The notes beneath the pieces were generated by a model. That model was given only the letters and a program-made list of their open reading frames with translations, had not been told where the DNA came from and searched no databases. This document shows positions 40,516 to 41,299 of a stretch of 64,000 bases of DNA, piece after piece (position 1 is the stretch's first letter; the number at the start of each line of letters is the position of its first letter). Source of the DNA: Escherichia phage BYEP01. The stretch lies in the sequence record OR757453.1; one strand, given 5' to 3'. The translations under genes and the position numbers were made by a program.

Positions 40516-41096
40516 TGATTAAATTGGTATTCGCTTATTCTCCAACTAAAACGGTCGAAGGCTTTAATGAATTAGCATTCGGTTTAGGTGATGGTTTACC
40601 ATGGGGGCGAGTTAAAAAGGACCTCCAGAATTTTAAAGCTCGTACCGAAGGTACAATTATGATTATGGGTGCTAAAACGTTCCAGTCATTGCCTACATTA
40701 CTTCCCGGTCGTAGACATATTGTAGTGTGTGACCTTGAGCGTGATTATCCTGTAACTAAAGATGGCGATTTAGCACATTTCTATATTACTTGGGAGCAAT
40801 ATATAGATTACATTTCTGGCGACGAAATTCAAGTATCAATTTCTGGCACGCCATTCGAGACTATGCTTGATCAGAATTCTAATGTTAGCGTAATTGGCGG
40901 ACCCGCTCTACTATATGCTGCGTTACCTTATGCGGATGAAGTAGTTGTTTCCCGCATCGTTAAAAGGCATCGTGTTAATTCAACGGTTCAATTAGATGCA
41001 AGTTTTCTTGATGATATAAGCAAGCGTGAAATGGTTGAAACTCATTGGTATAAAATAGATGAAGTAACAACCCTTACGGAATCAGTATATAAATGA
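40515..41096 (+). CDS. frd: dihydrofolate reductase
   Basis: 193 aa; matches T4 Frd. Confidence 0.85.
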
Positions 41097-41299
41097 GCAA
41101 TAAATTAAAAGTTAAGGATGTTCCTAATGCTATGGCCCTTTTTATTTGTCGGCAGATGCATCAAGGGCCTATGACACCAAAACAATATCTTAAAGGTGAG
41201 CGTTCTTTAGGATTTACTCGCAAAGCAAAACAAATGGTTAAATTAGGATATAAGCCTAACTTTGCCAAATATCCTTCTACATATTCTTGGATGAACTAA
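41093..41299 (+). CDS. hypothetical basic protein inserted between frd and td
   Basis: 68 aa Lys-rich ORF; ATGA overlap with frd stop and TAATG overlap with td start. Confidence 0.4.

Follow-up and report, generated by a model that had tools for sequence, protein, structure and literature searches.

The genes frd and td of phage T4 are said, in the classical literature from 1984, to overlap directly, with the stop codon of the first and the start codon of the second sharing the tetranucleotide ATGA. The T4 genome bears this out: in NC_000866, the end of frd is at position 145109 and the start of td at 145112, so that the two share 4 nt. In Escherichia phage BYEP01 (OR757453.1), of which we analysed a stretch of 64,000 nt (the window), a further open reading frame (ORF) of 68 amino acids (aa) lies between the two genes. 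The window is a Tequatrovirus segment with about 94–95% identity to its nearest GenBank relatives, for example Yersinia phage fPS-2 and Escherichia phage FL23. The locus raises the question of whether this ORF is a gene, how it came to occupy a junction that is bare in T4, and what its product does. We hold with high confidence that three answers apply together: the ORF is a real gene, the boundary it occupies is a variable accessory slot, and its cassette appears to have been exchanged laterally between phages. What the encoded protein does can be suggested less firmly.

A 68-aa ORF overlaps both frd and td

The frd/td junction of the window comprises the following features.

40515–41096, + strand: frd (dihydrofolate reductase), 193 aa; from the ORF list, near-identity to T4 frd over the last 196 nt (the part aligned) and the annotation in all related records.
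41092–41096, + strand: upstream copy of the direct repeat AATGA, containing the frd stop and the ORF start and forming the left edge of a 206-bp indel relative to T4; from pairwise alignment with T4.
41093–41299, + strand: basic ORF of 68 aa, PHROG 9550; from the sequence, the ORF list, the PHROG match, dN/dS and an AF2 model.
41298–41302, + strand: downstream AATGA copy, containing the ORF stop and the td start and forming the right edge of the indel; from the sequence and the T4 alignment.
41299–41847, + strand: td exon 1, 183 codons, its ATG overlapped by the ORF stop; from the sequence, the ORF list and the annotation in relatives.
41848–42110, + strand: group I intron of td, 263 nt long and lacking the reading frame of I-TevI; from Rfam RF00028 at 41838–42062 (64.1 bits), with splice sites by comparison with T4.
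42111–42422, + strand: td exon 2, 103 codons plus stop; from the sequence and the ORF list.

Read directly from the sequence, the ORF start (ATG, 41093–41095) overlaps the frd stop (TGA, 41094–41096) as ATGA, and the ORF stop (TAA, 41297–41299) overlaps the td start (ATG, 41299–41301) as TAATG (41297–41301). Both sides of the ORF therefore have the stop/start overlap characteristic of translationally coupled operon genes. The original prediction had described a lysine-rich 68-aa ORF that opens at the ATGA of the frd stop, replaces the direct T4 overlap and runs into the td start as TAATG; each of these points is correct, and the product contains 10 lysines and 3 arginines. The same pair of overlaps is present in Shinka, JS10, Marfa and 4S, and CIP9 has an overlapping GTG start. 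Downstream, the two td exons add up to 286 aa (183 + 103), as in T4 Td.

Pairwise alignment revealed that exactly 206 bp of the window, bounded by the two AATGA copies, are missing from T4. The alignment takes in 196 nt ahead of the ATG, of which the 49 nt next to it are identical; all seven mismatches lie farther upstream. The two junctions thus share the same ATGA and the same final approach to it, but differ in what the ATG opens: td itself in T4, and the 68-aa gene in the window, where td follows 206 bp later by way of TAATG.

The ORF is a member of a small phage protein family

A profile search of the 68-aa protein, proposed together with the original prediction, matched the PHROG 9550 family over its full length (E = 1.3e-45, 154.5 bits, residues 1–68 on profile positions 1–68 of 68). 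Between genera, dN/dS is 0.06–0.28 over the full length of the ORF, at a dS of about 0.9–1.4 or more, with synonymous sites near saturation. The N-terminal third (MSNKLKV..VP...L.ICRQ.HQG), comprising the first 25 residues, is the best conserved part of the family, and K4, K6, P11, R20, K34, G40, F41, M48, L51, G52, Y53 and P55 are invariant or nearly so down to 28% identity. The near-invariance of the N-terminal residues K4, K6, P11 and R20 marks the first ATG as the real start, and the 42-aa versions annotated in a few records are therefore truncations. We also considered an embedded RNA element or promoter as the cause of the nucleotide conservation. The + strand between 40700 and 41850 has no promoter-like or terminator-like site, including inside the ORF and at its edges, and the predicted fold of 41060–41340 is nothing unusual against shuffled sequences (z = +0.48), so the conservation is not due to an embedded non-coding element. 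The 68-aa ORF is a genuine protein-coding gene and not a chance frame.

Homologues of the ORF were found by tblastn in 237 phage records. About 134 of these carry it at at least 90% protein identity, and in all that were inspected it lies between frd and td; the inspected carriers include Shinka, pSs-1, Sf21, fPS-90, ACG-C40, G3F9 and fPS-2, together with the Dhakavirus phages JS10 and MN04. The usual annotation in these relatives is nearly always ‘hypothetical protein’. The proteins pSs-1 gp245 (YP_009111049), Sf21 gp226 and fPS-90 g234c are the same protein, 97–100% identical and with the same position and overlaps, and the window copy is an ordinary member of PHROG 9550 that shows no difference from them. 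The gene is thus already known: more than a hundred genomes of T4-like phages have it annotated, and PHROGs lists it, with no function recorded. Its presentation as an unusual feature of this DNA in the original prediction is not supported and is largely refuted by the yardstick set with it, the presence of a conserved, known gene at this position in reference T4-like genomes: the same ORF occupies the same position in every close relative inspected. A literature search on genes of the frd/td junction, PHROG 9550 and accessory or anti-defence genes of Tequatrovirus returned nothing about the 68-aa ORF.

Farther afield, homologues with 60–81% identity lie immediately upstream of td and overlap it in Klebsiella phage Marfa (Marfavirus), Enterobacter phage CIP9 (Kanagawavirus) and Serratia phage 4S. 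Homologues of 77 aa with about 43% identity occur in about 70 Phapecoctavirus genomes within arrays of small early genes, and the distant members of PHROG 9550 likewise belong to strings of small genes, early or from the replication region, in large phages that are unrelated, where they do not adjoin td. HMMER returned 11 matches among 1.84 billion representative sequences, and a profile search against 5.8 billion clusters returned 40, none of them with a Pfam domain; the family is tiny and restricted to phages. A scan of IMG/VR yielded nine loci, too few for a population analysis, and GenBank records were sampled individually instead.

Two of the database matches deserve separate mention. In the representative library, HMMER matched residues 9–29 of the family profile (VPSALGLHVCHQG) six times in a 1402-aa tandem-repeat protein (P0026). 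We regard this hit as spurious, to all appearance a chance resemblance to a repeat unit from outside phages. A distant homologue of 108 aa (P0040) is encoded in a small-gene array on a JGI metagenome contig (Ga0397175_00001; locus L017, 206–739), and within 5 kb of it lie a Tad2-like (anti-Thoeris) gene and a Phage_T4_Y05C gene. These surroundings hint at an accessory or anti-defence neighbourhood and prove nothing.

The frd/td boundary is a variable accessory slot

Comparing the frd–td junction across T4-like genomes, another of the checks proposed beforehand, uncovered three alleles, among which the T4 state is rare. With the T4 junction (596 bp) as the query, 514 records matched, and 60 were sampled evenly down the ranking. 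Among the 58 full-length rows in this sample, the junction was empty (T4-type) in 4, filled by the 206-bp insert in 14 and filled by a longer one of ~416 bp in about 40. The larger insert encodes the 115-aa protein RB32ORF229c, a member of PHROG 1928 (L027, RB32, 1011–1423). Because 363 records carry this 115-aa ORF at at least 90% identity, about 17 are left with a bare T4 junction, and the same number (~17) match the T4 junction at at least 99% identity. Expressed as shares of Tequatrovirus, about 70% have the 115-aa ORF, about 25% have the 68-aa ORF and ~17 of 514 have the bare ATGA. Within this genus, the frd/td boundary is therefore a variable accessory slot that is empty, occupied by the 68-aa gene or occupied by an unrelated 115-aa gene.

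The two cassettes resemble each other in their setting. Both occupy exactly the same site between the frd stop and the td start, and the RB32ORF229c cassette is also flanked by a short direct repeat that contains ATGA (AAATGAAAY, 9 bp), as recorded in the RB32 annotation (‘flanked by 9 bp repeat’). RB32ORF229c likewise has no recorded function: a Pfam scan of the 115-aa protein gave no match, and the annotation of one BASEL phage labels it ‘putative homing endonuclease’. Both genes are present together in Marfa, CIP9 and 4S, where frd is followed by PHROG 1928, then by PHROG 9550 and then by td. The proteins, however, are unrelated (hhalign probability 0.13%), and the larger insert overlaps neither neighbour: it begins after a gap of 20 nt from the frd stop and ends with a 45-nt spacer before td, which contains a promoter-like TATAAT and a separate ribosome-binding site for td.

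T4-type phages are known to shuffle genes in modular fashion through promoter/stem-loop cassettes termed PeSLs (Arbiol et al. 2010, PMC2839356; Comeau et al. 2014, PMC4122927). Like these, the slot gains, loses or replaces small accessory ORFs at a recurrent site between closely related T4-type genomes. The 68-aa ORF nevertheless differs in its edges, where neither the early promoter nor the stem–loop that marks the indel boundaries of PeSLs was found (40700–41850 on the + strand and the fold of 41060–41340, respectively), and where the only boundary repeat is the 5-nt AATGA. The mechanism proposed for the slot is distinct from that of PeSL cassettes (PMC2839356, PMC4122927).

These comparisons also settle how far the original prediction of an extra gene in the middle of the junction, with the overlaps kept, can be upheld. 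It holds against T4, with 206 bp added and both overlaps in place, but not as an oddity of this phage, since the arrangement is common in relatives. ‘Inserted’ is accurate only with T4 as the yardstick, because an occupied slot is the rule and a bare ATGA junction is rare, and a loss on the way to T4 is no less plausible than a gain on the way to this phage.

The cassette appears to have moved recently between genera

Mismatch maps delimit a tract of high identity at the junction.

41091–41345, + strand: high-identity tract comprising the ORF and td codons 1–16, common to Dhakavirus and other ORF carriers; from mismatch maps.

It has sharp edges, one near 41091, where the ORF starts, and the other near 41345, 45 nt into td. 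Fourteen phages with the ORF were compared: it has a mean pairwise nucleotide diversity of 0.023, whereas frd reaches 0.143 and td exon 1 reaches 0.147. The window and Dhakavirus JS10 differ at 20% of nucleotides in frd and 21% in td, and at only 2.5% in the ORF, for which dS is 0.11 as against 1.04 in frd and more than 2 in td. At synonymous sites, the ORF and the first ~45 nt of td are about tenfold less diverged than their flanks, even between genera, and td residues 6 and 12 (F and L; D6F and F12L) travel with the ORF. Low synonymous divergence of this kind argues that the cassette was exchanged recently. The copies in Marfa, CIP9 and 4S differ by 20–33% at the nucleotide level; the sequence can therefore change, and recent transfer explains its conservation better than extreme constraint would. 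From the pattern of sequence identity, we infer that a cassette of ~255 bp recently moved between phage lineages, probably by recombination in the conserved flanks.

Introns and accessory genes surround the junction

The intron in td was delimited by comparison with the T4 splice-site sequence. The td intron of T4 is about 1 kb long and carries I-TevI. Among close relatives of the window, many have I-TevI in the td intron; Shinka has an ORF-less intron about 57 nt longer than that of the window, and pSs-1, Sf21 and JS10 have none.

Farther downstream, nrdA is present in two frames, 42980–44413 (477 aa) and 45162–46151 (329 aa), split by a 236-aa ORF (44462–45172) that is a homing endonuclease according to the annotation of fPS-2, the nearest relative. 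The large subunit of ribonucleotide reductase is thus a ‘gene in pieces’ in the window and a single gene in T4. The nrdB gene (46203–47685) is broken by a second group I intron (Rfam RF00028 at 46862–47131, 68.7 bits), apparently without an endonuclease ORF; its counterpart in fPS-2 holds a homing endonuclease gene.

Directly upstream of frd, an 81-aa ORF (40270–40515; PHROG 3183, E = 9e-42) runs into frd through TAATG, its stop codon overlapping the frd start codon. Shinka, pSs-1, Sf21, fPS-90, RB32 and others have this ORF; T4 lacks it and has a gap between frd.1 and frd at this position. Together with the 68-aa ORF, it means that frd is flanked on both sides by accessory genes missing from T4.

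The product is a strongly basic three-helix protein

The 68-aa product has a predicted pI of 10.26 and a net charge of about +10.6. All 35 family members are similarly basic (pI 9.75–10.6, net charge +6.6 to +17), and besides the fold, this strong positive charge is the one property kept across the whole family. An AF2 model built from a 35-sequence alignment (pLDDT 85.3, pTM 0.62) depicts a compact three-helix domain (residues 13–24, 29–39 and 43–50) with an aromatic C-terminal tail packed back onto it. The model places the invariant G40, with F41, between the helix at 29–39 and the helix at 43–50, which is rich in K, R and Q, a geometry common in small helical bundles.

Searches for relatives of known function were negative. 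The window protein has no Pfam family at E ≤ 10; scans of this protein and the 35 members with Pfam, NCBIfam and PADLOC gave nothing usable, with 0 families among the 35 members for the PADLOC defence models; and a profile search of the PDB returned only noise (E ≥ 0.33). No member matched a helix-turn-helix family of Pfam or NCBIfam, and structural superposition on known helix-turn-helix domains gave no match either. Two labels in public records are accordingly unsupported: ‘DUF4858’, attached to the identical protein in the Shinka record, is absent even among the weak Pfam matches of the 35 members, and ‘flagellar biosynthesis protein’, given in some GenBank records, has no backing in the Pfam, NCBIfam and PADLOC scans.

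Small basic proteins with DNA-binding activity are familiar among the early or middle proteins of T4, DsbA and MotB being examples. The 68-aa protein is comparable with these as a functional analogy only, being small, strongly positive and encoded in a pre-replicative gene cluster; it differs from them in showing no detectable similarity of sequence or fold. The family-wide positive charge and the place among early genes lead us to propose, tentatively, that the protein might bind a polyanion, namely nucleic acid, either DNA or RNA. An acidic host protein is a less likely target. Its most likely role, suggested less firmly than its coding status, is that of a dispensable early host-takeover or counter-defence factor, and it is probably not part of dTMP synthesis.

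Alternative readings of the gene

The main competing idea places the protein in dTMP synthesis, as an adaptor or regulator of Td, Frd or the dNTP-synthesising complex, or as a translational regulator of td. Such a role would fit a gene that adjoins and overlaps td in Tequatrovirus, Dhakavirus, Marfavirus, Kanagawavirus and Serratia phage 4S, and with which the first 16 td codons, including D6F and F12L, travel. That linkage to the 5′ end of td, however, is expected anyway from recombination in the flanking homology. Partnership with Td or Frd is further weakened because many phages lack the gene, which is missing from T4 and about 70% of Tequatrovirus records, and because the distant homologues, in Phapecoctavirus and on metagenomic contigs, have small early genes of unrelated kinds around them and no td in the vicinity. 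We regard it as possible but unlikely.

More doubtful still is that the cassette is a selfish mobile element that spreads by drive and not by benefit to the phage, whether it homes into the frd/td junction itself or is left over from, or works with, a homing endonuclease. A sharp-edged, near-identical tract within otherwise diverged genomes would be expected of such an element, homing endonuclease genes and introns abound in the region, and the other cassette at the same site has its 9-bp repeat and, in one record, its homing endonuclease label. A three-helix protein of 68 aa is nevertheless too small for a GIY-YIG or HNH nuclease, none of the 35 members has a Pfam nuclease or NUMOD match, and purifying selection and conservation in unrelated phages argue for a function useful to the phage. 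We also tried a remnant of the DNA-binding domain of a homing endonuclease as a candidate, which was rejected on hhalign probabilities of 0.13% against I-TevI and 0.94% against the nrdA-borne endonuclease of the window.

That the ORF is non-functional, being a chance or decaying frame in a spacer or having only its 42-aa C-terminal part as a real product, is very improbable and already largely refuted: some records do annotate only the version from Met27 (ACG-C40; clusters P0018 and P0043), the JS10 record leaves the ORF unannotated and the sb4 record has a truncated copy, but constraint and the PHROG 9550 match extend over the full length, conservation within the family is highest over the first 25 residues, helix 1 (residues 13–24) is part of the confident AF2 model, and in sb4 td is broken as well, which suggests sequencing errors.

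Discussion

The best explanation of the locus as a whole, which we favour with some reservation, is an accessory PHROG 9550 gene joined to frd and td by stop/start overlaps, recently exchanged as a cassette within a slot and perhaps encoding an early factor of the nucleic-acid-binding type. The start codon of the ORF is the one that serves td in T4, with the same sequence ahead of it, and the stop codon of the ORF shares one base with the td ATG; these overlaps place it within the early frd–td transcription unit. Ribosomes finishing frd would start the ORF, as they would start td in T4, and those finishing the ORF would re-initiate at td. With the ORF inheriting initiation of the T4 td type and td re-initiated at the ORF stop, gain or loss of the gene would leave td expression undisturbed. 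The stop/start motif (T)AATGA, the only repeat at the edges of the indel, would permit clean gain or loss of the whole gene, and the pattern would fit recombination between short homologies, or else selection in favour of junctions at which stop and start are both restored.

As a finding about this particular phage, the ORF carries little weight, being a routine and already catalogued hypothetical protein of T4-like phages. Its interest lies in the locus and the family. At frd/td, T4 is a poor guide to the genus it belongs to. Entire genes are exchanged cleanly at this boundary by way of a stop/start overlap, and the family exchanged there is tiny and strongly basic, with a confident but unmatched fold and a recent spread between genera. 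That spread makes PHROG 9550 a reasonable candidate for screens of host range, anti-defence and early regulation. A bolder proposal, which we consider rather unlikely though worth stating, is that the early proteins of PHROG 9550, small and highly basic, form a new class that binds nucleic acid, for example in counter-defence or host shut-off, and that (T)AATGA is a general ‘plug-in’ junction. If so, the selective value of PHROG 9550 would explain the sweep of the ~255-bp cassette across Tequatrovirus and Dhakavirus amid diverged neighbours, and the (T)AATGA overlap would allow T-even phages to swap whole genes without disturbing the translation of an operon.
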